A stretch of 32,000 bases of DNA, from contig JAJRVL010000004.1 in NCBI GenBank assembly GCA_024277355.1, forward strand, positions 120,001 to 152,000, read 5' to 3'. The stretch comes from an archaeon (GTDB taxonomy: Archaea; Iainarchaeota; Iainarchaeia; Iainarchaeales; 1-14-0-10-31-34). Below the pieces are notes generated by a model. The model saw only the letters and a program-made list of their open reading frames with translations, was not told where the DNA came from and ran no database searches. Of this stretch, positions 5,210-28,600 are shown one piece after another. Made by a program: the position numbers and the translations under genes. Numbering within the stretch: the first letter of the stretch is position 1; each line of letters opens with the position of its first letter.

Positions 5210-5695
5210 ATGGCAAAAAAAGATTTAAAATCCTTAAAGCCAAAAGGATTTATTGACGAAATAAGAGAAATTAAAAGAGAGCTAAGAGTTTACAACAGAG
5301 AAAAAGCAGATTATTATAAAACATTAAATAAAAACCCAAAACATTTTGAATTAAACCGGTATTCAAGCAGTGCAAATATTGCATTAAACAGAGCAAAAAA
5401 AACAGCTGAAACTGCATTAAGAAGAATGACTCAGTCAAGACACAAAATAGAATCAGAACAAAAAAATAAAGTTGAAGAATTATTAAAAGAAATTAACACA
5501 AACATTAAAGAAAGAAATAAAAGAAGAACAAGAGAAGTTTTTGAAAAAGAAGGATTAGAAAAAGTAAGACAAATTAAAAGAAAAAATGCAGAAGGAAAAT
5601 TCAGGAAAGTCTGGAAAACTAAAAGCGCTTATGGTTTAGGATTGCATTTAATTGGAAGAATGAAATCAGCTTCCATAAGAAAAAGAAGACCTTAA
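5210..5695 (+). CDS. Highly basic Lys/Arg-rich protein (161 aa), function unknown
   Basis: Track ORF. Its ATG directly follows the nitroreductase TAA. It is a paralog of 5733..6185 (shared KNP...L..[HY].S..N[IV]AL..A.K.AE core and a C-terminal HGL/YGLGLH patch). Confidence 0.7.
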   Translation: MAKKDLKSLKPKGFIDEIREIKRELRVYNREKADYYKTLNKNPKHFELNRYSSSANIALNRAKKTAETALRRMTQSRHKIESEQKNKVEELLKEINTNIKERNKRRTREVFEKEGLEKVRQIKRKNAEGKFRKVWKTKSAYGLGLHLIGRMKSASIRKRRP

Positions 5696-5732
5696 ATTAA
5701 ACAAAAATATTGACTAAGGAAAAATAATTTTT

Positions 5733-6185
5733 ATGACTTGGAAGCAGGATAAAAAAAAACTTGAAAAATTCATGCAGGTTTATGATTACAGAAGAATAAA
5801 GTTAGCTGACGAAAAACAAGAAAAAAATCCTGATAAAATAAAATTAAAACAGCATAATTCTGTTTCAAATGTTGCTTTAAGGCAGGCAGTAAAATTTGCA
5901 GAAGAAATGAAACAAAAATTAAAAAATCCTGTTTATTTTGAAAATAACCAAAAAATTAAAACTGAATTGCTTAGATTTTTTGCTAAAATAAAAGGACTTG
6001 AATTAATTCATGCACAAAAAACAGGAAGAAGTAAAATAAAATCAATAAGACAAAAACAAAAAATTGGATTAAAAAGATTTAAAGAAATAAGAAAAATAAA
6101 AAAAACACACGGATTGTTTCCTCATTCGCTTAAAGATAAAAAACCGCAAAGAAGAACCAGAATAATAATAAAATTTCCAAAATAA
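5733..6185 (+). CDS. Highly basic Lys/Arg-rich protein (150 aa), paralog of 5210..5695
   Basis: Track ORF, with the same conserved core as 5210..5695. Confidence 0.7.
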   Translation: MTWKQDKKKLEKFMQVYDYRRIKLADEKQEKNPDKIKLKQHNSVSNVALRQAVKFAEEMKQKLKNPVYFENNQKIKTELLRFFAKIKGLELIHAQKTGRSKIKSIRQKQKIGLKRFKEIRKIKKTHGLFPHSLKDKKPQRRTRIIIKFPK

Positions 6186-12342: not shown

Positions 12343-13989
12343 TTACATCATGCCTGGCATTCCACCCATGCCGCCCATATCTGGAGGCATTGGAGGAGCT
12401 GAACCTTTACTGCTTCCTGCAATAATGTCATCAATTCTTAAAATCATTTCTGTTACTTCTGAAGCAGAAGTAATTGCCTGTGTTTTGACTGTTAATGGTT
12501 CAATTACTTTCTGGCTTTTTAAGTCAACTAATTTTGATTGATAGACATCTACTCCAATATATTTTCCTGAAGCTTTTGCATGTTTTGACCTTAAATTAAC
12601 TAAAGTGTCAATTGGATCCATTCCTGCAGTTTCAGCTAAAGTTCTTGGAATTATTTCTAATGTTTCAGCAAAAGCATCAATTGCTAATTGTTCTCTTCCG
12701 CCTACTGTTTTAGCGTATTCTCTTAATTTAACTGCAACTTCTATTTCGCTGCTTCCTCCGCCTGCAACAACTTTTCCGATTTTTATTGCTGAAATTACTG
12801 CTCCTAATGCGTCATTTAATGCTCTTTCTGCTTCATCCATTACATGGTCTGAACCGCCTCTGACTAAGACTGTTACTGCTTTAGGGTTTTTGCAGCCTTC
12901 AATAAAAACCATGTCTTCTCCAGAAACTTTTTTTGAGTTAACGTCTTCAGCAAAACCTAAATCGTCTTTGTTTAAGTCATTTGTTCTATTAACAATTTTT
13001 GCTCCTGTTGCTCTTGACAATAAAGTCATGTCTGATTTTTTGACTCTTCTTACTGCAAGAATTCCTTCTTTTGATAAAAAGTGCTGTGCTAAATCATCAA
13101 TTCCTTTCTGGCAGAAAACAACATTTGCTCCTGAAGCTTTAATTTTTTCAACCATGTTTTTTAACATGCCTTCTTCTTGGTCTAAAAAAGCCTGCAATTG
13201 GTCAGGAGAAGTAATTTGTATTTTTGCGTCTGTTTCTGTTTCTTTTACTTCTAAAGCTGAATCAATTAAAGCAATTTTTGCTTTAGCCATTTTTTTTGGC
13301 ATTCCTTCGTTTACTACTTCTTTGTCTATTACTACTCCTTTAATTAATTCTGAGTCAGTTAAACCTGCTCCGCCTTTTTTTTCTATTTTAATTTTGTCTC
13401 TGTTAATTGTTGTTCCGTTTTCTTCTTCTGAAACTGTTTTAATTGCTTCAACAACTAAATCAGCTAATTCCATTGAAGCTTCAGCTGCTTTTCCTGTCAT
13501 TGAAGTAACAGCAATGTCTTTTAGTGTTTTTGAATCTTTAATGCTGACTGAATCTGCTAATTCAGCATAATATTCTTTTGCTTTTTTTGCTGCCATTCTG
13601 TATCCATTAATTATAATTGAAGAATGAATGTCATCATCTAACATTTTTTCTGCTTTTCCAAGTAATCCGCCAGATAAAACTACAACACTAGTAGTTCCGT
13701 CTCCAACTTCATTATCTTGTGTTTTTGCTACTTCTACAAGCATTTTTCCTACAGGATGATCAATGCTCATTTCACTTAAAATTGTTGCTCCGTCATTTGA
13801 AACTGTTACGTCTCCTAAGTCATCTACAATCATTTTATCCATTCCTTTTGGACCTAAAGTAGATTTAACTGCATTAGCAACTGCTTTTGCAATTAAAATA
13901 TTAATTCTTTGTGCGTCTCTTCCTCTGGTTCTTTTAGAGCCATCAGATAAAAAAACGACTTGCTGGTTCATATTGTCTATTTGTGCCAT
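12343..13989 (-). CDS. ths: Thermosome subunit (group II chaperonin, 548 aa)
   Basis: Motifs [15 protein letters not shown] and GGG..E, plus the C-terminal [10 protein letters not shown] tail. GGAGG lies upstream of the ATG. Confidence 0.97.
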
Positions 13990-14100: not shown

Positions 14101-14481
14101 TTACCTGTTTTTTTTAAATGATTCAACTTTATCTGTTCCGTAAATGTCTGTCATTTCTTTTAATACAAAAAACCCTTTAAGGAAACAGGCAGCAGTTAAA
14201 ATTCTCAGGAAATTGCTTAAATAAAACCAATAACCTAACGGCCCATAAACATATTCTCTTGAAAATTCAAACACTTTGTAAAGTAAATCAAGAAAAATAT
14301 TTATTGCAAAACTTGCACACATAAAAGCAGAAGCAATTAAAATCCATTTAACAAAATAACGAAATTTTCCTGAAGTAAATCTTTTATAGGCAATAAAGCT
14401 TATTGTTAAAGCTGAAATAATTAAAACAATAGCCAGAATTCCTTCAAGTAAAAGAATATGTTCTAGTAATCCAAAACTCAT
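14101..14481 (-). CDS. Small 3-TM membrane protein (126 aa), cassette 1, third gene
   Basis: Track ORF with an ATGA overlap to the upstream gene and GAGGGA upstream. It has three hydrophobic helices and a cytosolic tail LKEMTDIYGT. It is a paralog of 14478..14828, 21428..21751 and 21111..21428. Confidence 0.8.
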   Translation of the reverse strand: MSFGLLEHILLLEGILAIVLIISALTISFIAYKRFTSGKFRYFVKWILIASAFMCASFAINIFLDLLYKVFEFSREYVYGPLGYWFYLSNFLRILTAACFLKGFFVLKEMTDIYGTDKVESFKKNR

Positions 14482-14828
14482 TTTATTCCCTCTTTTGAAG
14501 CAAAACCATATTCTTTTGACATTTCATTTAAAATTAATCCTGCTTTAAGAAAAGCAATTCCTGTTAAAATTGCTATGCCTGAACGGACTAAGTCAAGAAT
14601 TAAGTCTATTTCTTCTGCTACTCCAACAGCATTTATGTAATGAATTACAGTCGAAGCAATTACATGAAATAAAGCTAAAGTTGCTGTTATAATTACCCAT
14701 TTAATAAAAGTTTTGTAATGTCCTAAAACAAATTTTTTACTTATATTAATTGCCCATAAAATAGCCACAGCAACAATAAGAATTACTACTGCAGAAAAGC
14801 CAATCAAAGCAAAGCCCATAGTATTCAT
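14478..14828 (-). CDS. Small 3-TM membrane protein (116 aa), cassette 1, second gene
   Basis: Track ORF with an ATGA overlap to the upstream gene and GAGGTGG upstream. It has three TM helices and the tail LNEMSKEYGF. Confidence 0.8.
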   Translation of the reverse strand: MNTMGFALIGFSAVVILIVAVAILWAINISKKFVLGHYKTFIKWVIITATLALFHVIASTVIHYINAVGVAEEIDLILDLVRSGIAILTGIAFLKAGLILNEMSKEYGFASKEGIK

Positions 14829-15385
14829 TTATCCACCTCTAAAACATTATCACAAAACTGAGAAATTTGTGCAATTATTTCTTTGTCTTCTTTTTTATCT
14901 AAAGCAATAATTACTCCGCTTAATCCCCATACTCTTAATTTTGTAATCAGGAAATGAAAAAACTTTGAAATCCTCGCAGAATCATTATGTATAAGTAAAG
15001 CTGAGAGTGAATCAAAATATACTAATCTGTTTTTTACATCAATTGATTGAGTTACCTGATTTAATGCAATTCCTAAGTCAGTTAAATTTCTTGGAGATTC
15101 AAGGAACATTACGTTGCTTTCTTTTGCAGGGTTTCTATTAGCTGTTTTTGTAATCATATCAACAAAGAAAATCTTTTTTGTTTCAATTTTAGTTTGTTCT
15201 AAAGAAGAAACCAAACTTAAATAAGGCTTGTTTATTGTAACATAAATCGGAACTAAATGTTTTTTTTCAATTAAAGTTTTAAAAAACTCAGTATTGCTTT
15301 GAGAATAATTTCCCGGATTAAATACAGCTATCAAAACAAATTCTTTTTGCAGTTTCTGCAAAGCTAAATCTAAATTTTTTATCAT
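14825..15385 (-). CDS. KaiC/RecA-fold-like protein lacking a Walker A loop (186 aa from ATG 15385; the track starts at TTG 15388), cassette 1, first gene
   Basis: Alternating strand/helix pattern with IYVTINKP, IFFVD, LESPRNLTDLGIAL, VYFDSLSALL and VIIALDKK, resembling COG0467/DUF835-type domains. The expected GxxxxGK[ST] position reads FNPGNYSQS. It aligns end to end with 21748..22305. Confidence 0.75.
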   Translation of the reverse strand: MIKNLDLALQKLQKEFVLIAVFNPGNYSQSNTEFFKTLIEKKHLVPIYVTINKPYLSLVSSLEQTKIETKKIFFVDMITKTANRNPAKESNVMFLESPRNLTDLGIALNQVTQSIDVKNRLVYFDSLSALLIHNDSARISKFFHFLITKLRVWGLSGVIIALDKKEDKEIIAQISQFCDNVLEVDK

Positions 15386-15406
15386 CAAAACAATAAAGGA
15401 AATTAG

Positions 15407-15416
15407 TATTTAAAAT
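15407..15416 (-). promoter_or_regulatory. TATA-box candidate for cassette 1 (leaderless or near-leaderless start)
   Basis: The minus strand reads ATTTTAAATA, 21 nt upstream of ATG 15385. There is no Shine-Dalgarno-like run in between. Confidence 0.4.
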
Positions 15417-15441
15417 AGCTTTTATTCAGGCATTGGAATAC

Positions 15442-15449
15442 TTTTAATA
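15442..15449 (+). promoter_or_regulatory. TATA-box candidate for the mae-fum-mtnA operon (leaderless or near-leaderless start)
   Basis: TTTTAATA lies 22 nt upstream of ATG 15472. There is no SD-like run in between. Confidence 0.35.
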
Positions 15450-15471
15450 GATTTCTTTCTTTAAAACTTAA

Positions 15472-16632
15472 ATGTTTTCAGAAGAATCCATTGAATTACA
15501 TAAACAATTAAAAGGAAAACTTGAAGTAAATTCAAAAATTAAAATTGATTCAAAAACTCTTTCTTTAGCTTATACCCCTGGAGTAGCTGAACCCTGTAAA
15601 AGAATTCAGGCTGACCCAAAAAAAGTTTTTGATTACACAATTAAATCCAATACAATTGCAGTAATAACTGATGGAAGCGCAGTATTAGGTTTAGGAAACT
15701 TAGGTGCAGAAGCTTCTTTGCCGGTAATGGAAGGAAAATGCGCTTTATTTAAGGAATTTTCAGGATTAAATGCTTTTCCTATTGCATTAAAAACACAGGA
15801 AACAAAAGAAATAATTTCAATAATAAAAAATATTTCACCAGTATTTGCAGGAATAAATTTAGAGGATATTTCTTCTCCAAGATGCTTTGAAATAGAAAAA
15901 GCATTAATGGATTTAGGAATTCCAGTAATGCATGACGATCAGCATGGCGCAGCAATAGTTGCTTTAGCTGGATTAAAAAACGCAATGAAAGTTCTTAAAA
16001 AAAATTTAAGTGAAAGCAAAGTTGTAGTAAGCGGAATTGGAGCGGCAGGAACAGCTATAACAAAATTATTAATTGCAAATGAAAAACCAGAAGAACTTGT
16101 TTTAGTGGATAAAGAAGGAATTTTATTTGAAGGAAAAACAGGAATAATAAAACATCATTCAGAGTTAGCTGAATTAACTAACAGAAAAAAAATTAAAGGA
16201 AGTTTAGAAGATGCATTAATTGATGCAGATATATTTATTGGCTGTTCTATAGGAAACACAGTTACCTCAAAAATGGTTGAATCAATGAACTCAAAAATAA
16301 TTTTTGCTTTAGCTAATCCAATTCCTGAAATTATGCCTGAAGAAGCAAGAAAAGCAGGCGCAGAAATTATTGCAACAGGAAGAAGCGATTATCCAAATCA
16401 AGTAAATAATCTGCTTGCATTCCCAGGAATATTCAGAGGAGCAATTGATGCAAAAGCAGTTAAAATAACAGAAGAAATGAAGTTATCAGCAGTAAAAGCT
16501 TTAGCTGAATTTATTGAAAACCCAACAAAAGAATTATTTATTCCTGATCCATTAGATAAAAAAGTTACAGTAAAAGTAGCTGAAGCAGTAAAAAAAGAAG
16601 CAGAAAATTCAGGTGTAATTAGAAATGACTGA
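15472..16632 (+). CDS. NAD(P)-dependent malic enzyme (386 aa)
   Basis: Motifs LAYTPGVAEPC, VITDGSAVLGLGNLG, PVMEGKCALFKEF, DDQHGAAIV and the GIGAAG Rossmann motif match the small prokaryotic malic enzyme. Confidence 0.9.
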   Translation: MFSEESIELHKQLKGKLEVNSKIKIDSKTLSLAYTPGVAEPCKRIQADPKKVFDYTIKSNTIAVITDGSAVLGLGNLGAEASLPVMEGKCALFKEFSGLNAFPIALKTQETKEIISIIKNISPVFAGINLEDISSPRCFEIEKALMDLGIPVMHDDQHGAAIVALAGLKNAMKVLKKNLSESKVVVSGIGAAGTAITKLLIANEKPEELVLVDKEGILFEGKTGIIKHHSELAELTNRKKIKGSLEDALIDADIFIGCSIGNTVTSKMVESMNSKIIFALANPIPEIMPEEARKAGAEIIATGRSDYPNQVNNLLAFPGIFRGAIDAKAVKITEEMKLSAVKALAEFIENPTKELFIPDPLDKKVTVKVAEAVKKEAENSGVIRND

Positions 16633-17494
16633 ATTAAATTCAGCAATACTTGAATTATACAAAAAAGCAAGTTTTTTTCTGCCGGAAGACGTAAAAGAAA
16701 AATTAATTAAAGCCAAAAACAAAGAAGAAAATGAATTAACAAAAAAAGTTTTTAATTCAATGTTTGAAAACATTAAGTTAGCAGAAGAAAAACAAACTCC
16801 TTTATGCGGTGATACAGGAACTCCTATTTTTTTTGTTTCTAATTCAAATAATTTTTCTCAAAAAGAAATAATTAAAGCAGTAAATAAAGCAACAGAAGAA
16901 GCTGTAAAAAAAAATTATTTAAGACCTAATGCAGTTGACTCTTTAACAGAAAAAAATTCAGGAAACTGTTTAGGAGAAAAAATTCCTTTAATTTATTTTG
17001 AAGAAAATGAAAAAGAAAAAGAATTGAAAATTGATTTAATTCTTAAAGGAGGCGGAAGCGAAAATATAGGAAAAACTTATTCTCTTCCAGATGAAGAATT
17101 AAATGCTGAAAGAAATTTAGATGGAGTAAGAAAATGCATTTTAGATTCAGTGATTAAAGCTCAAGGAAAAGGCTGTCCGCCAAACACATTAAATGTTGTT
17201 GTTGGAGGAACAAAAGATGCTGTTTCAGTTGAAGCAAAAAAATTAATTTTAAGAAAATTAAATGAAAAAAACCCTGTAAAAGAACTGCAGGAATTTGAAG
17301 AAAAACTATTAAAAGAAATTAATTCTTTAGGAATAGGCGCAATGGGAATTGGAGGAAATTCTTTTGCTTTAGGAGTTAAAACAAAATTTTTAGCAAGACA
17401 TCCTGCATCATATTTTGTTGAAATAAGTTTTGCATGCTGGAATGACAGAAGAAAAACAATGACTTGGAAAAACGGAGAAGCAAAATATGACTGA
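16625..17494 (+). CDS. Fe-S hydro-lyase alpha subunit (class I fumarate hydratase / tartrate dehydratase type, 289 aa)
   Basis: A CGDTGTP motif and GGGSEN, with later Cys residues, typical of the alpha-type domain. It overlaps the upstream gene by 8 nt. Confidence 0.85.
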   Translation: MTELNSAILELYKKASFFLPEDVKEKLIKAKNKEENELTKKVFNSMFENIKLAEEKQTPLCGDTGTPIFFVSNSNNFSQKEIIKAVNKATEEAVKKNYLRPNAVDSLTEKNSGNCLGEKIPLIYFEENEKEKELKIDLILKGGGSENIGKTYSLPDEELNAERNLDGVRKCILDSVIKAQGKGCPPNTLNVVVGGTKDAVSVEAKKLILRKLNEKNPVKELQEFEEKLLKEINSLGIGAMGIGGNSFALGVKTKFLARHPASYFVEISFACWNDRRKTMTWKNGEAKYD

Positions 17495-18065
17495 AAAAAT
17501 CAAATTAAAAATTCCTTTTAACGAAAAAGAAATCAAAGAATTAAACACAGGGGATTTTGTTGAATTAACTGGAACAATTTTTCTGGGAAGAGATAAAGTG
17601 CACAAAAAATTAAGTGAAAGAATTGATGAAAAACTGAAAGAAAAATTAAAAGGAAAAATGATTTATCATTGCGGTCCAATAGCAAAAAAAGAAGAAAAAT
17701 GGAAAATTATTTCAGCAGGACCAACTACAAGCATTAGAGTAGAAAAATTCATGCCAAAAATAATTGAAGAATATAAAATAAAAGGAATTATGGGAAAAGG
17801 CGGAATGGGAAAAAATACTCTTAAATCATTAAAAGAAAATAATGCAGTTTATTTTTTAGCAGTAGGCGGAACTGCTGCATTATTAGCCAAAAAAATAACT
17901 GAAGTAAAAAATGTTTTTTTTCTGGAAGAGTTTGGAGTTCCGGAAGCATTATGGGAAGTTGAAATAAAAGATTTTCCTGCAATAGTTTCAATGGATTCAA
18001 AAGGAAACAGTTTACATGACAAAATAAAAGAAAACTCCATTAAAAAATTAAGTGAACTAAAATAA
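17487..18065 (+). CDS. Fe-S hydro-lyase beta subunit (class I fumarate hydratase / tartrate dehydratase type, 192 aa)
   Basis: GTIFLGRD..H, HCGPI, GPTTS.R and GKGGMG motifs of the beta-type domain. It overlaps the alpha gene by 8 nt. Confidence 0.85.
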   Translation: MTEKIKLKIPFNEKEIKELNTGDFVELTGTIFLGRDKVHKKLSERIDEKLKEKLKGKMIYHCGPIAKKEEKWKIISAGPTTSIRVEKFMPKIIEEYKIKGIMGKGGMGKNTLKSLKENNAVYFLAVGGTAALLAKKITEVKNVFFLEEFGVPEALWEVEIKDFPAIVSMDSKGNSLHDKIKENSIKKLSELK

Positions 18066-18074
18066 TAAGAGACT

Positions 18075-19190
18075 ATGAAAGTAAACGGAAAACATTTCAG
18101 AAGCATTTGGCTTGAAGGAAAAAAAATTAAAGTAATTGACCAGAGAAATCTTCCTCATAAATTTGAAATCGAAGAATTAACTAATTTAGAGGAAGTTATT
18201 ACTGCAATAAAAGACATGCATGTAAGAGGCGCTCCATTAATTGGAGCAACAGCTGGTTTTGGAATGTATTTAGCAGTAAAAAAAGCAGAAGAAAAAAAAT
18301 CTGAGGAAATAATTGAAGAATCAGCAAAACAGTTAATTCAAGCAAGACCTACTGCAGTTGACTTAAAATGGACAGTAGAAAAACAACTGAAAGAAATTAA
18401 AAAAGGAAATTCATTTAAAGAAAAAAAAGAAATTGCTTTTAAAACCGCAAAAAAGATTACTGATAATTCAGCTGAACAATGCAGAAAAATCGGGGAATTT
18501 GGAGTTAAGTTAATTAAAGAAATTTCAGAAAAAAAGAAAGCAAAAACAGTTAATATTCTTACACATTGTAACGCAGGATGGCTGGCTTGCGTTGATTTTG
18601 GAACTGCAACTGCCCCTATTTATAAAGCACAAAAAAATGGAATTAAAATTCATGTCTGGGTTGATGAAACAAGACCAAGATTACAAGGAATGCTTACTTC
18701 ATGGGAATTAATGCAGCAAAAAATACCTCATACAATTATTGCTGATAATACTGGAGGCCATTTAATGCAGAAAGGATTAGTTGATTTATGTATTACTGGA
18801 GCAGATAGAGTTGCATTAAATGGAGATGCAGCAAATAAAATTGGAACTTATCTGAAAGCTTTAGCTGCAAAAGATAATGAAATTCCATTTTATGTTGCTT
18901 TGCCTTCTTCTACTTTTGATTTAAATTTAGAAAACGGAAAAAACATTCCAATTGAAGAAAGAAATGAAAATGAAATAAAATTTATTAAAGGATTAAATAA
19001 AGAAAAAATAACTGAAGTTTTAATTGCTCCTGAAAAAAGTTCAGCTAGAAATTTTGGTTTTGATGTAACTCCTGCAAGACTGATTGCCGGATTAATTACT
19101 GAAAAAGGAATCTGCAAACTAGATAAAAAAAGCATTTTAAAATTATTCCCTGAATTCAAAAAAAGATTAATTAATGATTTAAATGAGTGA
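18075..19190 (+). CDS. mtnA: Methylthioribose-1-phosphate isomerase-type protein (eIF-2B alpha/beta/delta-related family, 371 aa)
   Basis: Motifs IDQRNLPH, VRGAPLIGATAGFG, THCNAG and GADRVALNGDAANKIGTY match the MtnA pattern. I cannot exclude a ribose-1,5-bisphosphate isomerase role, which belongs to the same family. Confidence 0.8.
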   Translation: MKVNGKHFRSIWLEGKKIKVIDQRNLPHKFEIEELTNLEEVITAIKDMHVRGAPLIGATAGFGMYLAVKKAEEKKSEEIIEESAKQLIQARPTAVDLKWTVEKQLKEIKKGNSFKEKKEIAFKTAKKITDNSAEQCRKIGEFGVKLIKEISEKKKAKTVNILTHCNAGWLACVDFGTATAPIYKAQKNGIKIHVWVDETRPRLQGMLTSWELMQQKIPHTIIADNTGGHLMQKGLVDLCITGADRVALNGDAANKIGTYLKALAAKDNEIPFYVALPSSTFDLNLENGKNIPIEERNENEIKFIKGLNKEKITEVLIAPEKSSARNFGFDVTPARLIAGLITEKGICKLDKKSILKLFPEFKKRLINDLNE

Positions 19191-20346
19191 AGAATCCATT
19201 AAATTTCATTGTAAATTAATTAAAGGAAATTCTCCTGAAAAAATAAAGAAATTAAATCAATGGAGAAACAAACTTTTTTCTTTGAATTTAATCGGCGCAT
19301 ATTCTGATGGAATTGGCTTTGGTAATTTAAGCGAAAAAACAAAAAAAGGATTTATTGTTTCAGGAACTGCAACAGGAACAATAAAAGAATTAAAAGCAAA
19401 ACATTATGCTGAAGTAACTGGATTTAATTTAAATGAAAATTCTTTGGTTTGTAGAGGAAAAATCAAGGCTTCAAGTGAATCATTAACTCATGCAGCAGCA
19501 TATTCTTCAAGCAAAAAAATTAATGCAGTAATTCATGTTCATTCACTTAAAATGTGGAATGCATTAAAAGACAAAGTTCCAACAACAAAAAAAGGAATTT
19601 TATATGGTACCATTGAAATGGCAGAAGAAATCAAAAGATTAATGAAACAAAAAAAAATAATGCAGAAAAAAATTATTGTAATGAAAGGCCATAAAAAAGG
19701 AATAATTTGTTTTGGAAAAGATTTAGATGAAGCAGGAAATATTCTGCTTAATTATTTGAATGGAATTAATTCAGCTGAATTCCCAAAAAATTTAGTTAAA
19801 TTTCTGAAAGAAGAAAAATTAAAGTTAATTAAAAAAATAGCTAAAGGGCATTCAAGTGAAATTTTTTTAGTTAAAAAAAGAAAAAAAGAATTTGCTTTGA
19901 AAATAGAAAAAGTTAAGTCAACAAGAAATAAAATGGCTGAAAGAGAAACAGAAAATTTAATTAAAGCTAATTCTGTTAAAGTTGGACCGTTAATTTATGG
20001 TTTTGACTTAAAAAAAAGAATTATTTTAATGGAATTTATTAAAGGAAAAACTTTTAGAGAATGGCTTTTTGGATTAAAGAAAAATAAAAAAAACAAATTA
20101 ATTCTAAAAAAATTCATTAAAGAATTATTGCTTCATGCTGAAAAATTAGATGAAATTGGATTAGACCACGGCCAGTTAGCAGGAAGAGGAGTAAATATTT
20201 TAGTTAAAAGAAATAAACCTGTAATAATTGATTTTGAAAAAGCTTCATTAAACAGAAAAGTTCACAATCAAACAGTATTAGAATCTTTTTTGTTTAAAAA
20301 CCCTAATTCTATGATAACAAAAAAAGTAAAAGAAATTTTAAGTTAA
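19183..20346 (+). CDS. Two-domain fusion: class II aldolase/adducin-like N-domain plus protein-kinase-like (Bud32/RIO/APH-type) C-domain (387 aa)
   Basis: N-domain: GFGNLSEK..GFIVSGTATG, SSESLTHAAAY, NAVIHVHS and the late MKGHKKG..FG. C-domain: FALKIEK (beta3 Lys), ILMEFIKG hinge, HGQLAGRGVNILV catalytic-loop equivalent and IIDFEKA (DFG equivalent). It overlaps mtnA by 8 nt. Confidence 0.6.
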   Translation: MSEESIKFHCKLIKGNSPEKIKKLNQWRNKLFSLNLIGAYSDGIGFGNLSEKTKKGFIVSGTATGTIKELKAKHYAEVTGFNLNENSLVCRGKIKASSESLTHAAAYSSSKKINAVIHVHSLKMWNALKDKVPTTKKGILYGTIEMAEEIKRLMKQKKIMQKKIIVMKGHKKGIICFGKDLDEAGNILLNYLNGINSAEFPKNLVKFLKEEKLKLIKKIAKGHSSEIFLVKKRKKEFALKIEKVKSTRNKMAERETENLIKANSVKVGPLIYGFDLKKRIILMEFIKGKTFREWLFGLKKNKKNKLILKKFIKELLLHAEKLDEIGLDHGQLAGRGVNILVKRNKPVIIDFEKASLNRKVHNQTVLESFLFKNPNSMITKKVKEILS

Positions 20347-20402
20347 AAAAAACTATTAAATAACCGTTTATTAATTAAAAAAAAAAGAAAAAGAAAAGAA
20401 AT

Positions 20403-20909
20403 TCATTTTTTGCTTGGAATTTCTTCTGTGTATTTGTTAACAAAAGTTTTTCTTAAAACAAATTTTCTGTCAACTTCGCTGATTAAAACATCGCATGCTA
20501 TTTTGATTGCTTCCATTTCTTTAATTAAACGTTCTTTTTCTAATTCAATTTCTGAAACATTTTCATATGTTTCAATTGCATCCCAAAACATTGAACCATC
20601 AACATAAGTGTATGGATGAGAATTCATTTTTTTGGCTATTCTTTCAACCATTTTTCCTAGCCATAAATTCATTTCAACTTTAACTTGTCCTTTAATTTGT
20701 TTTCCTTTGTCAAGGTTTTTTCTTAACATATTGACAATAGTTGCTTTAGGAAAAGGAAGATTTAAATCATCAGAATCTTCTTCACTTATATCTTCTGGAA
20801 TTGCAACATCAGATTCTTCAGCTAAGTCTGCTGCCTGTTCTTCTAATTCCTGTTTTTCTTTTTCTTCAGCTTTTTTTTCCTTTATTTCGGATTTATGTTC
20901 TTTAGTCAT
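20403..20909 (-). CDS. Histone-fold-like protein with an acidic N-terminal extension and a helical C-terminal extension (168 aa from ATG 20909; the track starts at TTG 20915)
   Basis: The core LPFPKATIVNMLRKNL-DKGKQIKGQ-VKVEMNLWLGKMVERIAKKMNSH-PYTYVDGS-MFWDAIE fits helix1-loop-helix2-loop-helix3 of archaeal histones (compare ELPIAPIGRII...). GGGGGT lies 10 nt upstream of ATG 20909. Confidence 0.45.
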   Translation of the reverse strand: MTKEHKSEIKEKKAEEKEKQELEEQAADLAEESDVAIPEDISEEDSDDLNLPFPKATIVNMLRKNLDKGKQIKGQVKVEMNLWLGKMVERIAKKMNSHPYTYVDGSMFWDAIETYENVSEIELEKERLIKEMEAIKIACDVLISEVDRKFVLRKTFVNKYTEEIPSKK

Positions 20910-21029
20910 TAGCAATTTACCCCCTAAAAAAACAATAGTAAGTGCTACAAATTGTATATAACATTAAAGAAGAGTTTAGAATATAAAGCCTTTCTGTAAA
21001 GAAAAGATTAATACTTTAAAAACTTTTGG

Positions 21030-21105
21030 GTTTACTCATTGAATCCATATCACACATTGTCTTGCAAATAACAATACTTCTATTGCAGTAATAATAAAGA
21101 AAAAA
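21030..21105 (-). repeat. Degenerate tandem copy of the 3' end of gene 21111..21428
   Basis: The 76 bp match 21109..21177 (69 bp) apart from one substitution (21041 G versus 21120 A) and a 7-bp insertion (tcacaca, 21050-21056) that breaks the ghost reading frame. The two copies are separated by only 3 nt. Confidence 0.9.
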
Positions 21106-21110
21106 TTTGT

Positions 21111-21428
21111 TTACTCATTAAATCCATATTGTCTTGCAAATAACAATACTTCTATTGCAGTAATAATAAAGAAAAAACTAGCAATATAAGAAATCCATGC
21201 ACTAATTACTAATACAGGAATAGAAGAAAAATCATAAATAAACGAAATAAAATTAAATAAATGCAAAGAAAAAAACATTAATGAAGTTAAAAAAATCCAT
21301 CGCGTAATTGCCTTTAATTCAGTTGAATTAAATTTTAATGAACTTTGAAAAGAAACAACAACAGCAATTAAAATTAAAATCATGCTTGAAACATTAAGCA
21401 ATGAAGTAAAAGATAATTCTAATACCAT
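21111..21428 (-). CDS. Small 3-TM membrane protein (105 aa), cassette 2, third gene
   Basis: Track ORF with a TAATG overlap to the upstream gene, three TM helices and the tail LLFARQYGFNE. Confidence 0.8.
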   Translation of the reverse strand: MVLELSFTSLLNVSSMILILIAVVVSFQSSLKFNSTELKAITRWIFLTSLMFFSLHLFNFISFIYDFSSIPVLVISAWISYIASFFFIITAIEVLLFARQYGFNE

Positions 21429-21751
21429 TAAAACAACCTTTTATTTTTCATTCCAAATTTTTCTGAAAACCTTAATGCTTCAAATGAAGTTAAAATTAAG
21501 CCAATTGCAGTTGAAATAACAAAAAAAGAACGAATACCATAAATTAATTCAAGTTCATAATTCAAATAAACCATTATTAAAATAAAAAATTGACCTGAAA
21601 CAAAAATTAATAAAGAATAAAAAAAATGCCTTAAAACATTCTTTAATTTTCCTTCATTAAATCTACTCAATGCTCCAAAAAACAACGAAACAGTTAAAAA
21701 AGAAATAATAAAACTTATAAAACTTGAAGTAAACTCAAAGCCTATATTCAT
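21428..21751 (-). CDS. Small 3-TM membrane protein (107 aa), cassette 2, second gene
   Basis: Track ORF with an ATGA overlap to the upstream gene and GAGGT upstream. It has three TM helices and the tail LRFSEKFGMKNKRLF. Confidence 0.8.
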   Translation of the reverse strand: MNIGFEFTSSFISFIISFLTVSLFFGALSRFNEGKLKNVLRHFFYSLLIFVSGQFFILIMVYLNYELELIYGIRSFFVISTAIGLILTSFEALRFSEKFGMKNKRLF

Positions 21752-22305
21752 TTTTTTACCTCAATTATTTTGTCGCAGAATTGTGAAACCTGTGCAATTA
21801 AATTTTCATCAACATTTTTCTGCAAAGAAATTAAAACTCCTTTAATTTTCCATTCCCTCATTTTTCCTGTTAAAAAATGCGCAAACTTTGAAACACTTTT
21901 TGACTGATTATAAATTAATAAAGTGCTTAAAGAATCAAAGAAAATAAATCTGTCTTCTTTTTGTTTCATTGAATTAAATGCTTCACCTAAAGCAATACCT
22001 AATTCAGTTAAACTGTTAGGAGAATTAATAAACAAACAATTTGGAACTTCTTTTGCTTCCCCTGAAATAGTTAAAGTAATTGCATCAATAAAAAAAATGT
22101 TTTTTGTATTAATTTTATTTTTTTTTAGTACTTCATTTAAGCTTTCAAAAGGCCTGTTAACAGTAACATAAATTCCTTTTTCTTTAAATTTATTAGTTAA
22201 AATATCCAAAATTTTAAGGTTTGTCGCAAAATATTTTTTTTCATCAGACAAAATTAAAGCAATTTCCTTATCTGAAACCTTTGATAACTCTTTTTCTAAA
22301 TCCAT
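21748..22305 (-). CDS. KaiC/RecA-fold-like protein lacking a Walker A loop (185 aa), cassette 2, first gene
   Basis: It aligns over its full length with 14825..15385 (IYVTVNRP, IFFIDAIT, INSPNSLTELGIAL, IFFDSLSTLLIYN, SKFAHFL, IAQVSQFCD). The P-loop position reads LSDEKKYFA. An A/T-rich box lies ~30 nt upstream and there is no SD. Confidence 0.75.
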   Translation of the reverse strand: MDLEKELSKVSDKEIALILSDEKKYFATNLKILDILTNKFKEKGIYVTVNRPFESLNEVLKKNKINTKNIFFIDAITLTISGEAKEVPNCLFINSPNSLTELGIALGEAFNSMKQKEDRFIFFDSLSTLLIYNQSKSVSKFAHFLTGKMREWKIKGVLISLQKNVDENLIAQVSQFCDKIIEVKK

Positions 22306-22380: not shown

Positions 22381-23058
22381 TTAAATGATTTTCAACAGTT
22401 CATTTACATCTTTTATTTCATAATCTGCTTTAACTTTTTTTGAAAAAAATTTCTGCCCATATTTAGCTAAACAGGTTTTCATTCCAACTTTTTTTGCACC
22501 TAAAATGTCTCTTTCAGGATTATCTCCAACAAAAAGAATTTCATTTGGATTAAATTTTAATTCTTTTAATGCTTTTTTAAAAGGGAGTTTACTTGGTTTT
22601 AATTTTCCTGTGTCATCTAAAGTAACCACAAAATCAAAATAATGAGTCATATTCATTTCAGCCAACCTTAACCAAGCCCTCATTCTTGGAGCATCAGAAA
22701 CAATTCCCAGCACTAAATTTTTTTCTTTTAATTTTACTAAAGTACTTCTTACATGAGGATAAGGGAACAAAAAGCCTGCCTGAACTCTTCTATAAGAAGC
22801 AATTCCATTGCTTAAAATCCTGTAATCAATTTTTTTAATTGTTTTTTCCAAAAACTTCTGGAAAATTCGCTGGTCTTCAATACCATATTCTTTAAATAAT
22901 TCAAACAAAATTTTTTCTGCTTTCTTTTCATTGATATTTAATCCTGAATCAATCATTGCCTGAATTGCAGCATTAGAACTTTCAGTTTTCATTCTCATAA
23001 AATCAATTAAAGTGTTATCCAAATCAAATAAAACTGCTTTAATCTTTTCTTTTTTCAT
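22381..23058 (-). CDS. HAD-superfamily hydrolase (225 aa)
   Basis: Motif I is FDLDNTLIDF (DxDxT), motif II is IVSDAP, and motifs III/IV are K...VGDNPERDILGA. Confidence 0.85.
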   Translation of the reverse strand: MKKEKIKAVLFDLDNTLIDFMRMKTESSNAAIQAMIDSGLNINEKKAEKILFELFKEYGIEDQRIFQKFLEKTIKKIDYRILSNGIASYRRVQAGFLFPYPHVRSTLVKLKEKNLVLGIVSDAPRMRAWLRLAEMNMTHYFDFVVTLDDTGKLKPSKLPFKKALKELKFNPNEILFVGDNPERDILGAKKVGMKTCLAKYGQKFFSKKVKADYEIKDVNELLKII

Positions 23059-23111
23059 TTTTCCAAATCCTGTTAAATTTTTCTTTATGTTCCCAGATCC
23101 TGTTAATTTTT

Positions 23112-23537
23112 TTATTTTTCTAAATCCAATAAAAATAATTCTGTTTCTTTATCTTTTTTTCTTTCAGTTTTTTCTTCAAATTTTTGAATAAAAATTTCCA
23201 TTGTTGCTCCTACAATTCCTGAAACAAAATGGCCTCCAAAAACACTGAAATCATTTTTTCCTAAAGTAATATGAACATGCATAAAAGGTTTTTCTTCTTT
23301 TAATGCAATGTTTCCAATAAAAGACAAAACTTCCAAGTCTTCTTCAAAAACTTTATTTATATATTTTTTTTCTGTTAAAGAAAAATGAGCTATTTCTGCT
23401 TTCTCCAGTGCTCCAATGCCTTTAACTAAACCAAAAAAAACTTTTTCTTTTTCACAAAATTCAGTTATTTTTTCAGCAATGTTTTCTCCTTTAATTAATT
23501 TTAAAATAAAACCAGAAGAAATTTTTTTGTATTCCAT
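23112..23537 (-). CDS. PPC (DUF296) domain protein (141 aa)
   Basis: The pattern L..GE.I.E.I..F......G...GIGA...A.I.........[FL]...LE[VIL]LS..GNI.......HVH..L......GGH...G.V..T.E matches the PPC/DUF296 fold. Confidence 0.7.
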   Translation of the reverse strand: MEYKKISSGFILKLIKGENIAEKITEFCEKEKVFFGLVKGIGALEKAEIAHFSLTEKKYINKVFEEDLEVLSFIGNIALKEEKPFMHVHITLGKNDFSVFGGHFVSGIVGATMEIFIQKFEEKTERKKDKETELFLLDLEK

Positions 23538-24515: not shown

Positions 24516-25592
24516 TTATTTTCCTTTTAATGCAAAGAAACCTATTCCTAAAATTGCTGCAATAACAACAACAACTGCAAGAGTTCCCTGAATATTATTT
24601 AAACCAAAAAATCCAGTTGAAGGAACAACAGGAGGCGCATTGTCTTTTGTTTCTTCAGTAATAGTTGAAATACATTCTCCTGCATTACAAACAGAATCTT
24701 CTCCGCAAGAAGTTCCATCTAATTGATTATTATAATTACATACTCCTTCAGAACAAGAATCAATAGTGCATGGGTTTCCGTCATTGCAGTCAACATCTAA
24801 ACATAAATTATCTGTTCCTGTTCCAAGAGTTTCTTCTGAAGTTTCATCTTCTTTTGGTTCTTCAACAGAACAATCAACTAAAGAAAAATCTTTTTTTACT
24901 TTTAAGTATCCAGGCTTGTAAACTTCAAGTTTGTATTCAATTGCTTCAGTTAAATTAAAATCAAAAATCCCATTAATATCTGTTGTACCTGAAATTAAAG
25001 ATTTATTTTCTTTAAATACAACTACAGTAGTATTACTTGCAGGTTTTTTATTTGAAAGTTTAACTTCAACTAAAGCATTAGAATTAATGCATTTATTAGA
25101 AATGGTTACGCCAAGGCCTCCGCCACCTCCGCCTCCACCGCCGCCGCCAGAGCTTCCTCCGGAAGGACTTCCAGTATCAGCAGGTGCAGGACAGTCAGCC
25201 GCACAAGAAGAAGAATTTTCGCTTCCATTACATACTCCATCACCGCAAAAAGGATCAATAGTTAAAGCTAAATTTAATTCAGTTAAACCATTATTCATAA
25301 AAGTTGATTCAGCAACTTTTGTTGCATTAACAAAAAATTCAATTGTTTCTCCCTGATTAACTCCATCTGGATCAGAAACAAAAAATAAATCAGGAGTAAA
25401 ACCATAAGTTCCATCAATAGAATTAATTGAACCAAACTCAACTCCATCAATTTGAGCACTAATAGTTGCATTATTTGCAGGATTGTCGTTAATAGTTACT
25501 TGTCCATAAAATTGATGCGGCCATCCAACCGCAAAAACTGAACTCAATAAAAATACTGAAAAAATAATTAAAATAAAATAATTTAACTTCAT
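24516..25592 (-). CDS. Cell-surface protein with signal peptide, Cys-rich modules, poly-Gly linker and a C-terminal PGF-CTERM-like anchor (358 aa)
   Basis: Signal peptide FILIIFSVFLLSSVFA. CGDGVCNGSENSSSCAADCP module. An uninterrupted run of 11 Gly within a longer Gly/Ser linker. A CarboxypepD_reg-like stretch (GTTDINGIFDFNL..YKLEVYKPGY). A Cys-rich C.D.NPCT.D.C repeat. C-terminal PSTGFFGL plus hydrophobic helix plus KGK. GGGGGA lies 8 nt upstream of the ATG. Confidence 0.85.
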   Translation of the reverse strand: MKLNYFILIIFSVFLLSSVFAVGWPHQFYGQVTINDNPANNATISAQIDGVEFGSINSIDGTYGFTPDLFFVSDPDGVNQGETIEFFVNATKVAESTFMNNGLTELNLALTIDPFCGDGVCNGSENSSSCAADCPAPADTGSPSGGSSGGGGGGGGGGGLGVTISNKCINSNALVEVKLSNKKPASNTTVVVFKENKSLISGTTDINGIFDFNLTEAIEYKLEVYKPGYLKVKKDFSLVDCSVEEPKEDETSEETLGTGTDNLCLDVDCNDGNPCTIDSCSEGVCNYNNQLDGTSCGEDSVCNAGECISTITEETKDNAPPVVPSTGFFGLNNIQGTLAVVVVIAAILGIGFFALKGK

Positions 25593-25655
25593 ATATAGTC
25601 CCCCTTAATTAACTAATTAATATATTCAGTTTTTATGTAAAAAAGAATAAAAAGA

Positions 25656-25679
25656 GTGGGTTTTAGTCAAAAAACCCAC
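25656..25679 (-). terminator. Hairpin straddling the stop codon of the 1687-aa gene, followed by a T-rich tract
   Basis: GTGGGTTTT (25656-25664) pairs perfectly with AAAACCCAC (25671-25679). On the minus strand the hairpin is followed by TCTTTTTATTCTTTTTT. Confidence 0.45.
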
Positions 25680-28600
25680 AATTTGTTGTGTATGCATATG
25701 TGTTATTTCCGCTGGAATCAATCCAATAACCTGCTCCTGGATCCAAATTGGCATAGTAGTCAAACTCTGACCACAAACTAGTGTTTGGATCGCCATCAGT
25801 GTTATATAGTTCCCAATAAGACACTAATGAAGTCCAGCCTTTGTCAAGATATGAATCTCCTAAAGAATACAAAGCACATCCTGCTTCTTTTCCATTTCCT
25901 TCTGGACCATTATATCCTTCCTGGCCTTCTAATCCATAATATCCAATTAAGTTCCATCCGTCTTTTAGATCTCTACTTGGAGGAGTTACTGCTGGACTAA
26001 ACAAGCTTCCACCTAACAACAAAGTATCTGCTTCATAAGCTCTAATCCAATAACCCCATCCTGGAGTAATTGAATCTAAATTGCTTAATTCAGGTTGACC
26101 TGGATGATAGACATACCATGAATCAGTAAAAGCATCATAAGTCCAAACTGATTCAACGTTATCCATTACATCACTGAATACATCTTCTATGTCGTCATTG
26201 ATTAAAACAAACGGAACTGAAACTAAATTCCATTTTTTGTTTAATTCAATTTCAAAGGTTGTTCCTTCAACTTTGAATTTTTCGTCATCTATTGTTCCAA
26301 TGTTTCCTAATGCGTCTTCACAATAATACTTTAAGTTGTGTTCTGTTTCTTCAGTGAAATAGAACTGCAGTTCTTTTTGATTTATATGACACCATCCATC
26401 ATCAGTCATTGTTCCTTCATATGTTTCACAATAATTTTCTGTAGTGTCATCTGCATCTAATTCAACTTTAAAGTAAATTGTTTCATGGTCAACTGGATGA
26501 GGGTCAAGGTCATTACATGCCATTGTAATTGGAGTAAGTAAAGTTACTTTCCAGCATTCCATTTCATTTCCTTGTCCATTCCAGCAAAGTTCTCCTATTT
26601 CAGGATAATAAGCTGAATCCATTCCATTCCATGGGTCGCTTGGTTCTCCAACTGTTTTAACTGTTTCAGGTGCAGTTTCGTCAACAAAGACACATTGTTT
26701 GTGTACAGAAAACTTGTCTACATTGTCTGTTGCTTTGATTTCAATTAAATGACAAGATTCTTCTCCTGCATAAAATCCTTCTTCAGAATATTCAGTCCAG
26801 TTTCCTGTTCCTTCTATTCCTTGGCATAATTCTATGTCTCTGCAGTTTTCTTCTTCAACCAAAGAAACTTTGTATTCAATTAAAGCTAATCCTGATGGAT
26901 GTGGTTCTGGATCATATGCTTCTGCATAAATTGGAGTTTGAGTTGTAATCCATTCTAATCCTTCTTCAGTGAAATAAGGGTCACCAAACCCTTTTTTTAT
27001 TACTGGAGGTGTTTTGTCTACAACAAATTCTGAATAATCACTGCTTGTATTTCCTAGTGCATCCCAGCAGGTAATTTCTAATTGGTGTCTTGATTCTTCT
27101 GGGAAGTTAATAACAAATGGCGGAGTTATTCCTGTTTCTCCTCCGCTTGCATTACCATCAAGCAAGGCATAAGACCAATCACATATAACTGAATCTACTG
27201 GGTGAGGTGTTGGATCAACTGCATCAACATGGATTTCTGTTACTCCATCAATAATACATTCATCGCCTTCTTCTATTGCTGGGCAAGTTCCAATTTGTGG
27301 TCCTTCAACTGTTTTGGTTATTACTGGTGGAACTGTTTCAACTGTAAAGTATTCTAAGTCTATTTCATTTGCATTTCCTAATCCGTCTGTACAATAATAT
27401 TCAAGGTTATGATAAGAGTCTTCCTGGAAATTAAATTCCATTGCGCCTCTTTCTGTACAGCACCAGCCGTCTTGATTTGGTTCACAGTAATTTCCTGTTA
27501 TGTCTTCATAGCCATTATCTTCTAATGAAACTTTATAACATAAAGTTTCTCTTTCAACTGGGTGAGGATATGCATCTTCGCAAGACAAAAAGAAAGGTGT
27601 GTCAGTTGTAACAAATTCTTCTGTGTCTTCACATTGAGGTGCTGGAGCTTGTCCGCCTAAACCACAAGTTCCTGATTCAATTGCATAAGCTCTTGCACTT
27701 CCATCATATGCATCCCTAATCCACATTACTTCTGTTGGGAAATAAGTTTGTGGATCGCATTCCATGTCTTCAATTCTATAATTAGTGTTAACAAAAGTGT
27801 CAAGAATTGTTAGATCATTTCTGTGAACTCTTAAAGTTGTTTCAAATCCATTTGTTCCAAGATAAAAGTTTTCTCCGCCAATTGCTATTCCGCTATTTTG
27901 TACTAAATCTGGATGGATTGCTGAAAGGTCAACTGTTCCAAGGAATGTTCCGTCTGAAGCCATGTGAACCATTATTGATTGTACGTCATCACTATACCAA
28001 ATGCTGTCATCAGTTGCATCAAATGCAATTCCATCGTCCAAACAATAAGAAACATATTGTGATGGAACTGAAAATTGATATGTTGCAGCTCCTGTTACTG
28101 GATCAATTAAGTAAACTGGTCCTCCTCCTGACTGGTCACAGCCATAAGTTCCAGTCCAAAGCATACCTCTAGTCGCATCAAAAGATAATGCTCCTAAACC
28201 TGATTCAGCAATTCCTGTTGTTGGAATAACTTCATGACCTGAACCATCTGGTCTTATTTTGTATAAATTTGTACTGTCAATATAAGTGTAGTACAAGAAT
28301 TCTCCGTCAAAAGCTACTCCTACTCCTGTTCCGCTTCCTTCAGGGAAATTCATTGTAAATACTTCATCTCCAACTGCATAAAGAGAATCTACTGGAGGAG
28401 CTTGGTCTCCTTGTACTTCAACATTACAATCTTGTCCTAATTTTATTACATAAGGTTCTCCGATTTCTTTTGTTCCTTGTGGAGGAGTATTGTCAACAAA
28501 AGGACACTGCCATTGTAATAGTTCTTCGTTTCCTAGTTTGTCTATTGAATAAAATTCAATTACATGACATGATTCTTCTGCTTTAAAGAATTCTGTGAAA

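Follow-up and report, generated by a model that had tools for sequence, protein, structure and literature searches.

The stretch of DNA analysed here (the window) comprises 32,000 nucleotides (nt) of a DPANN archaeal genome from the order Iainarchaeales (assembly GCA_024277355.1, contig JAJRVL010000004.1, positions 120,001 to 152,000) and carries two cassettes on its minus strand, each consisting of a gene for a KaiC-like protein of about 185 amino acids (aa), named K1 and K2, followed by two genes for small membrane proteins, named A1 and B1 in cassette 1 and A2 and B2 in cassette 2. K1 and K2 are read here as inactivated KaiC-like (iKaiC) proteins, and the pairing of such a gene with a small membrane protein gene recurs across DPANN archaea. 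The two same-strand cassettes and their six open reading frames (ORFs), which had been delineated in a preliminary description made from the letters of the DNA, were found at the coordinates listed below (window numbering; TM, transmembrane; SD, Shine-Dalgarno).

15407..15414, minus strand: TATA-like TTTAAATA, tentative, its end 21 nt upstream of the K1 ATG (sequence read)
14825..15385, minus strand: K1, iKaiC-like protein, 186 aa (ORF list; Pfam DUF7504)
14834..14839, minus strand: SD-like GAGGTG in the final K1 codons, 5 nt before the A1 start (sequence read)
14478..14828, minus strand: A1, small membrane protein, 116 aa, 3 TM helices, tail EYGF (ORF list)
14488..14492, minus strand: SD-like GAGGG in the final A1 codons, before the B1 start (sequence read)
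14101..14481, minus strand: B1, small membrane protein, 126 aa, 3 TM helices, tail IYGT (ORF list)
21748..22305, minus strand: K2, iKaiC-like protein, 185 aa (ORF list; Pfam DUF7504)
21758..21762, minus strand: SD-like GAGGT in the final K2 codons, before the A2 start (sequence read)
21428..21751, minus strand: A2, small membrane protein, 107 aa, 3 TM helices, tail KFGM (ORF list)
21111..21428, minus strand: B2, small membrane protein, 105 aa, 3 TM helices, tail QYGF (ORF list)

The genes of each cassette are translationally coupled. The K1/A1, A1/B1 and K2/A2 junctions all read ATGA, in which the start of the downstream gene overlaps the stop of the upstream one, and the A2/B2 junction reads TAATG, in which the A2 stop and the B2 start have one base in common. 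SD-like runs (GAGGTG, GAGGG and GAGGT, plus a weak AAGGT) lie 5-7 nt before the internal starts, within the last codons of the preceding gene. In both respects the sequence agrees with the preliminary description, which had also taken the two cassettes to be leaderless. For cassette 1, an in-frame TTG at 15388 stands one codon ahead of the K1 start, and the spacing of TTTAAATA to the K1 ATG would fit a leaderless transcript; this tentative match is of low significance because TATA-like strings are common in DNA of only ~24-30% G+C, the range found near the cassettes (~23-38% over the window in 1-kb steps). Directly upstream of K2, on the same strand, lie a PCC-domain gene and a HAD hydrolase gene (22381-23537, minus strand). 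Since the PCC-HAD order upstream of K2 is kept in L001 and L103, two of the loci surveyed below (numbered with the prefix L), cassette 2 may be co-transcribed with these genes rather than leaderless.

Cassette 2 is directly followed by the gene for a 170-aa protein (20403-20915, minus strand), which matches no Pfam family and is very acidic in its N-terminal half; the same position is held by a 92%-identical counterpart in L001 and by a gene of similar size (168 aa) in L103. Between the cassettes lie genes for malic enzyme, the alpha and beta parts of fumarase and an IF-2B/MtnA-like protein, together with an Aldolase_II-RIO fusion ORF.

KaiC fold and lost catalytic motifs of K1 and K2

K1 and K2 align end to end with 42% identity (E = 1e-48), and every motif previously quoted for the two proteins is present. 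Both exceed the gathering cut-off of the Pfam family DUF7504 (PF24336), with 40.2 bits for K1 and 42.9 bits for K2 against a threshold of 27, and are therefore members by Pfam's criterion; precomputed DUF7504 matches also exist for nearly all homologs, and DUF7504 itself is without an assigned function. Scores for the KaiC family (PF06745) are borderline, falling just below the cut-off of 26.6 bits (24.9 for K1 and 25.7 for K2), and the match spans profile positions 46-187 only, i.e. the part after Walker A. Similarity to DUF835 (PF05763), described as iKaiC in PMC5847659, is weak and below the cut-off of 33.1 bits (K1, 15.6 bits, E = 0.014; K2, 20.7 bits, E = 4e-4). At the level of the ArlH/FlaH equivalogs of NCBIfam (cut-off 215), K2 reached 21 and 16.8 bits and K1 had no match. 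No TM segment was found in K1 or K2.

The RecA/KaiC fold that the preliminary description had proposed for these proteins, and for which it had advised profile and structure searches, is borne out by modelling. An AlphaFold2 model of K2, built with 45 homologs, reached a pLDDT of 92.7 and a pTM of 0.89, and its comparison with the PDB by Foldseek returned 372 matches at E <= 1e-3, placing K2 in the RecA/KaiC structural superfamily. The best match was the KaiC-type ATPase PH0284 (E = 8e-8, TM-score 0.73), and further matches included KaiC, FlaH/ArlH (4yds, 4wia), Sso2452, Elp4/5/6 and Rad51 paralogs. In the model, a single residue links the strand at positions 15-20 to the helix at 22-39, so that an eight-residue P-loop cannot fit. 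The loss of the Walker A motif, first noticed in K1 and K2, is real and extends to the whole family: GxxxxGK[ST] is absent from K1, K2 and every iKaiC ORF at all fetched loci (0/114), against 66 of 67 active KaiC neighbours in which it is present.

What replaced the catalytic motifs can be read from an hhalign comparison of the iKaiC family profile with a profile of 40 active KaiC neighbours, which aligned with 94% probability. The KaiC Walker A, GxPGsGKT, stands opposite xAxxYxxTN in iKaiC, and the catalytic EE of GlYITfEE stands opposite the N-[KR] of GIYVTVN[KR]P (N50, [KR]51). The catalytic Glu pair of KaiC (hYhoxEE) is thus missing, with N50 conserved at 90% or more, and the Walker B (hhhhDS; more generally hhhhD followed by S/T) is kept as FFDSLS, with D124 invariant and S127 conserved at 90% or more. 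Because the KaiC fold is kept, the P-loop is gone and Glu-Glu is replaced by Asn-Lys/Arg, K1 and K2 are classed as inactivated KaiC-like proteins; with only the Asp-Ser of Walker B left, they would be incapable of canonical ATP binding or hydrolysis.

Positions invariant or near-invariant in the iKaiC family are Y25, Y46, N50, D74, D124, S127, H143 and D178. Four of these, Y46, N50, D74 and D124, are located in or just after modelled strands of K2 and, according to the model, define a face that is the nucleotide-site face of active relatives; the former nucleotide pocket may therefore still be under selection to bind something. Only one of the homologs found, P0105 (293 aa), carries TM helices fused to the C-terminal side of its iKaiC domain; there are two of them, unrelated to the small-protein family described next.

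The small membrane proteins

A1, B1, A2 and B2 had been described as mutual paralogs, each with three TM helices, a basic loop after the first helix (TM1) and a [YF]G[FTM] tail. All three features were found in all four proteins, and one family hidden Markov model (HMM) matches each of them at 76-80 bits (A1, 77.6). Paralogy holds at the level of the profile and only in part between pairs: after composition correction, similarity was detected for A1-B1 (E = 7e-7), B1-B2 (E = 2e-5) and A2-B2 (E = 8e-5), was marginal for B1-A2 (E = 0.025) and was undetectable for A1-A2 and A1-B2. The sequences are too divergent to resolve the duplication history of the small genes.

In the family alignment, the basic turn after TM1 takes the form A[RK]K.L..G..L[RK].Y, and [SG]x[EK][FY]GF is conserved directly after the third helix (TM3), the strict pattern [FY]G[FMT] occurring in 51 of 77 unique sequences. 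Lys and Arg residues cluster in loop 1 and in the C-terminal tail, from which the positive-inside rule predicts an external N-terminus and an internal C-terminus; both conserved motifs would then be cytoplasmic. The external loops are tiny (~5-17 residues). The helices in a model of B1 (pLDDT 84.9) span residues 5-34, 39-71 and 81-115 and are all long; the last one reaches past the membrane and bears the tail motif. A search of the PDB gave no structural counterpart of this model (best E = 2).

No curated family in Pfam, NCBIfam, PADLOC or PHROGs matched the small proteins. The family is rare: when 1.84 billion cluster representatives were searched exhaustively with its profile, only 36 relatives of 76-210 aa were found, all uncharacterised and none of them fused to a KaiC-like domain. 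The relatives of 140-210 aa contain the 3-TM core plus additional N-terminal TM helices; for the partners of ~210 aa, an origin as fused tandem duplicates of the 3-TM unit was ruled out, each having a single HMM domain. Homology of the small proteins to the TM part of fused iKaiC/DUF835 proteins was likewise rejected: hmmsearch against the same representatives gave no match longer than 210 aa, so that no fused protein has a membrane part with detectable similarity to them.

Conservation of the gene pair

K2 has homologs in Micrarchaeota, Woesearchaeota, Nanohaloarchaea, Aenigmarchaeota and Nanoarchaeia. Loci were obtained by a single-protein scan of genomes (6 loci) and by a tighter alignment against metagenome contigs (80 loci); the 80 metagenomic loci, picked by iKaiC similarity alone, were taken together with the genome and contig loci, and their ORFs were scanned with local profiles. 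Pairing was counted for 76 non-redundant DPANN iKaiC genes for which 400 nt or more of sequence was available downstream, a partner being accepted within 60 nt on the same strand.

A small-family gene lies directly downstream at 55 of these 76 loci (72%), and in at least three more (L007, L044 and L099) the partner position is held by a ~100-aa 3-TM gene missed by the profile. The iKaiC/partner junction is overlapping in 41 of 68 cases, with a gap of 1-15 nt in a further 19. The pairing was also recovered in the reciprocal direction, by examining the genes upstream of the distant small-family members P0150 and P0136: in L018-L020 they are immediately preceded by a DUF7504 iKaiC gene, and in L021 by an end-truncated ORF with iKaiC family motifs.

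The number of small genes varies. A single one is present at 48 of the 55 loci with an adjacent partner and two at the other 7, and three were seen at a few loci (L009, L029); loci of the K2 lineage (L001, L002, L023, L025, L027, L103) typically have the two-gene version. The unit that is conserved is therefore the pair of an iKaiC gene and a small gene, whereas the triad noted in the window is lineage-specific, and the heteromeric pair of small proteins envisaged in the preliminary description is not a general feature.

At L015 (1548-5188), two iKaiC genes occur in tandem, one of them apparently truncated or frameshifted, and the pair sits between two short bacteriorhodopsin-family fragments and a photolyase gene.

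The two cassettes compared

Cassette 2 is embedded in a stable gene order. Orthologs of K2 with 78-89% identity are accompanied by the same two small genes, with A2 orthologs at 70-82% identity (L001, L002, L023, L025 and L027) and B2 orthologs at 75-88%, and the synteny PCC-HAD-K2-A2-B2-170 aa is conserved in related genomes. For K1, no ortholog above 35% identity was found among 5.8 billion proteins, and none was found for A1 or B1 among the fetched loci. Since K2 is nearer to iKaiCs of other lineages (up to 54% identity) than to K1 (42%), the two cassettes are, judged by these identities, homologous yet not the result of a recent duplication.

The cassettes had also been said to bracket the mae-fum-mtnA operon. 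In a close relative this operon ends with malic enzyme, followed by a helix-turn-helix gene, and cassette 1 is missing there; the bracketing is thus specific to the present genome and probably incidental.

Neighbouring KaiC ATPase and type IV pilus genes

A Pfam census of 150 neighbouring ORFs identified KaiC ATPases (26) and T2SSF proteins (14) as the commonest families. By unbiased clustering, 32 loci have KaiC ATPases, 11 have T2SSF-type proteins and 5 have a secretion-ATPase fragment, while four families whose N-termini resemble archaeal prepilins are each present in 7-10 loci; the labels of the T2SSF and T2SSE neighbours were checked and confirmed. When counted per locus over 48 non-redundant loci of at least 4 kb, an active KaiC was present at 24, pilus genes at 14 and both at 11. 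An association of KaiC ATPases with archaeal type IV pilus loci is known (PMC4858521). To the preliminary description the neighbour survey adds a recurrent link to active KaiC ATPase and type IV pilus genes.

Two layouts recur. In one, a KaiC gene is divergent from the row iKaiC-3TM-pilinA-B-C-D; in the other, two or three KaiC genes are divergent from iKaiC-3TM, which is in turn convergent with T2SSF-T2SSF-T2SSE. Partner proteins at loci with pilus genes have the best conserved tail, GKEFGF. An identification of the neighbouring ATPases as ArlH was rejected, as they fall far below the ArlH/FlaH cut-offs and are nearest to models of the KaiC_arch_3 type. At L011 (1046-4853; Nanoarchaeia), a multi-TM HAMP-PAS protein, an iKaiC and a KaiC ATPase with an N-terminal extension of ~150 aa are encoded in a row that looks like a complete sensor-adaptor-ATPase chain.

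In the window itself, ORFs running off its ends included, no active KaiC or pilus gene (T2SSE, T2SSF or pilin) was found, nor any archaellum gene or prepilin-like N-terminus.

Some loci show other arrangements. At L014 (622-2997), the iKaiC gene is directly preceded by two KaiC-family genes that flank a V4R-domain gene, and the place of the 3-TM partner after it is taken by four pilin-like genes. A few kb from the module, L103 (3799-7104) carries TIR_2 and AAA_25 domain genes and L018 (3552-4630) reverse-transcriptase-domain genes, which may represent defence or mobile islands.

Relation to described systems

The protein class to which K1 and K2 are assigned is already known, both as iKaiC and as Pfam DUF7504, and the remark in the preliminary description that no function had been characterised for the arrangement is to be narrowed accordingly to the small-protein partner, which appears to be undescribed. 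As summarised in PMC5847659, which cites Makarova, Galperin and Koonin (2017), iKaiC is an inactivated KaiC-like ATPase domain class of archaea that includes DUF835 and MEDS, and its domains have been proposed as signalling modules. The family of K1 and K2 resembles the described iKaiC domains in its KaiC/RecA fold, disrupted catalytic motifs, predicted non-enzymatic signalling and genomic association with active KaiC ATPases. In the described proteins, from Euryarchaeota and Thaumarchaeota, the domain is for the most part fused to REC, PAS, HalOD1 or membrane regions, whereas here it is a stand-alone domain of DPANN archaea that shares its operon with a small membrane protein of its own. Many DUF835 proteins have N-terminal TM helices, which would make them iKaiCs tethered by fusion; K1 and K2 lack such a fused membrane region, and their putative tether is a separate, unrelated small protein.

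ArlH/FlaH is likewise a single-domain KaiC-like protein (~230 aa) and a structural neighbour of the K2 model (4yds, 4wia); it accompanies a FlaI-type ATPase and an ArlJ/TadC-type platform, and genes of these kinds are found at 14 of 48 iKaiC loci. It differs in binding ATP and in having a Walker A, which the iKaiC family is without, and the co-encoded arlI/arlJ genes that mark ArlH/FlaH were not found in the window. RecA-like subunits that act non-enzymatically in rings or scaffolds, as proposed for iKaiC, are known from Elongator (Elp4/5/6) and from Rad51 paralog complexes, and both kinds are among the Foldseek matches of the K2 model (4a8j, 9q25); being eukaryotic, soluble, nucleic-acid acting and without a membrane partner, they serve as an analogy only.

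No mention of DUF7504 or of a module of iKaiC and small protein was found in the literature searched, the scope of which did not extend to Makarova et al. (2017). The small-protein family, its DPANN operon with a stand-alone iKaiC and the links to KaiC and pili appear to be undescribed.

Proposed function and alternatives

We favour, with a probability of about 0.5, the reading that the module is a membrane-tethered pseudo-ATPase adaptor or regulator in KaiC-type signalling, often tied to pili; a non-catalytic subunit docked to membrane proteins, as first suggested, is still the best account of the cassettes, though an inferred one. Overlapping and translationally coupled genes would supply iKaiC and its membrane partner in fixed proportion, and iKaiC would be docked to the membrane through the partner's cytoplasmic basic loop and [FY]GF tail. 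So tethered, it would modulate or scaffold active single-domain KaiC-type ATPases non-catalytically and, in a sizeable fraction of DPANN genomes, would act on the spot of, or close to, the machinery of type IV pili (TadC/ArlJ-like platform, FlaI-like ATPase, pilins). In the present genome, where the module occurs twice, with the small gene tandem-duplicated each time and neither KaiC nor pilus genes nearby, any interaction with active KaiC and any part in pilus control would have to operate in trans. A more specific version, in which the old nucleotide pocket of iKaiC has been repurposed to bind the partner's [FY]GF tail and the anchored ring recruits or gates KaiC at the pilus platform, is an unlikely elaboration at present; a conserved pocket is supported by the invariant Tyr, Asn, Asp, Asp and Ser, which are placed at the C-terminal strand ends.

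Several points count against the adaptor reading. The evidence for a physical complex of iKaiC and its partner, and for docking through the tail motif, is indirect. About one quarter of iKaiC genes have no small partner, some of them being followed directly by a KaiC ATPase gene, others forming tandem iKaiCs and others standing alone. None of the active neighbours is an ArlH; they are single-domain KaiC proteins of a generic kind. At 21 of 48 loci, and at either cassette of the window, neither a KaiC ATPase nor pilus genes occur, so that the KaiC/pilus link is either not obligatory or acts in trans. Finally, the survey covered flanks of +/-3 kb, and its metagenomic loci are taxonomically unbalanced.

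The module might instead be a dedicated structural or assembly part of a DPANN type IV pilus-like machine rather than a general signalling adaptor, with iKaiC placed ArlH-like beneath the secretion ATPase and the small membrane protein forming a stator or scaffold like ArlX of the archaellum. This possibility, which we regard as doubtful, draws on the T2SSF, T2SSE or pilin genes within 3 kb at 14 of 48 loci, on the two stereotyped pilus-gene layouts, on the GKEFGF tail being best conserved in partners at pilus loci, and on the known accessory role of KaiC-type proteins in archaella and type IV pili (PMC4858521). It sits poorly with the 34 of 48 loci and the two window cassettes that have no pilus genes nearby, with a window free of prepilin-like N-termini, with scores far below the ArlH/FlaH cut-offs for iKaiC and the neighbouring ATPases alike, and with the iKaiC of L011, which is linked to a HAMP-PAS sensor instead.

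The guess made in the preliminary description, a self-contained membrane sensor or scaffold, would dispense with a KaiC ATPase altogether: the small proteins would sense an envelope or membrane signal and alter the oligomeric state of iKaiC, which would signal to unrelated targets. That the iKaiC-small gene pair is the most conserved unit, and that KaiC and pilus neighbours are wanting at both window cassettes and at 21 of 48 loci, would suit such a device. Even so we consider it unlikely, given that external loops of ~5-17 residues leave little room for ligand sensing, that the module contains no output domain and that no other neighbour is nearly as enriched as active KaiC.

From the architecture alone, short multi-helix membrane proteins beside a protein of a ring-forming fold family, the small proteins could be imagined to oligomerise into a channel- or transporter-like pore gated by a cytoplasmic iKaiC ring, in analogy to the regulatory rings beneath ion channels; this is highly improbable, as no similarity to channel or transporter families was found by sequence or fold, the TM helices of the family alignment have no conserved polar or charged residues and transport genes are not enriched among the neighbours. 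A mobile defence or toxin-antitoxin-like cassette, which would explain the patchy distribution and the orphan cassette 1 (K1, A1 and B1 being without orthologs) and would accord with occasional reverse transcriptase, TIR and nucleotidyltransferase neighbours, is scarcely credible in view of the lack of PADLOC or PHROGs matches, of flanking repeats or integrases and of any nuclease or toxin domain, and of the conserved housekeeping synteny around cassette 2.

KaiC-like proteins have been proposed as major signalling hubs of archaea, and the DPANN archaea are especially poorly understood; to our knowledge, almost none of the archaeal KaiC-like proteins has been characterised. The present analysis defines a compact, widespread DPANN module with a clear sequence signature, a dead KaiC together with a dedicated small membrane protein, and corrects misleading automatic annotations, "archaellum biogenesis ATPase FlaH" and "ATPase domain-containing protein" among them, of proteins that have no ATP-binding loop. 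If the more specific version with the repurposed pocket is true, DPANN symbionts would possess a KaiC-based switch for filaments that they may use in host attachment.

Other features of the window

The Aldolase_II-RIO ORF between the cassettes (19183-20346, plus strand) is a single frame of 387 aa that joins an Aldolase_II (MtnB-like) domain to a RIO kinase domain. The two are encoded by separate adjacent genes in L001 (196 + 191 aa) and L103 (204 + 190 aa), and the ORF is either a true gene fusion or the product of a stop codon lost in assembly.

At the left end (3-4614, minus strand) lie four genes whose products (>795, 202, 339 and 201 aa) begin with signal or anchor helices and match no Pfam family; the 202-aa and 201-aa proteins look like paralogs by their N-terminal sequence. 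They are followed at 5210-6185 (plus strand) by genes for two adjacent basic proteins of 161 and 150 aa, also without a Pfam match, in which a similar motif (..NSxxNxALxxAxKxAEE..) suggests a tandem duplication. On the minus strand at 24516-30726 are encoded two probable surface proteins, one of 1687 aa with a faint Ig-like match and one of 358 aa with a CarboxypepD_reg-like domain; this part has a G+C content of 34-38%, against mostly 23-33% in the remaining window. The thermosome gene (12343-13989, minus strand) is overlapped in antisense by a 321-aa ORF at 12605-13570 (plus strand), almost certainly a spurious shadow ORF.

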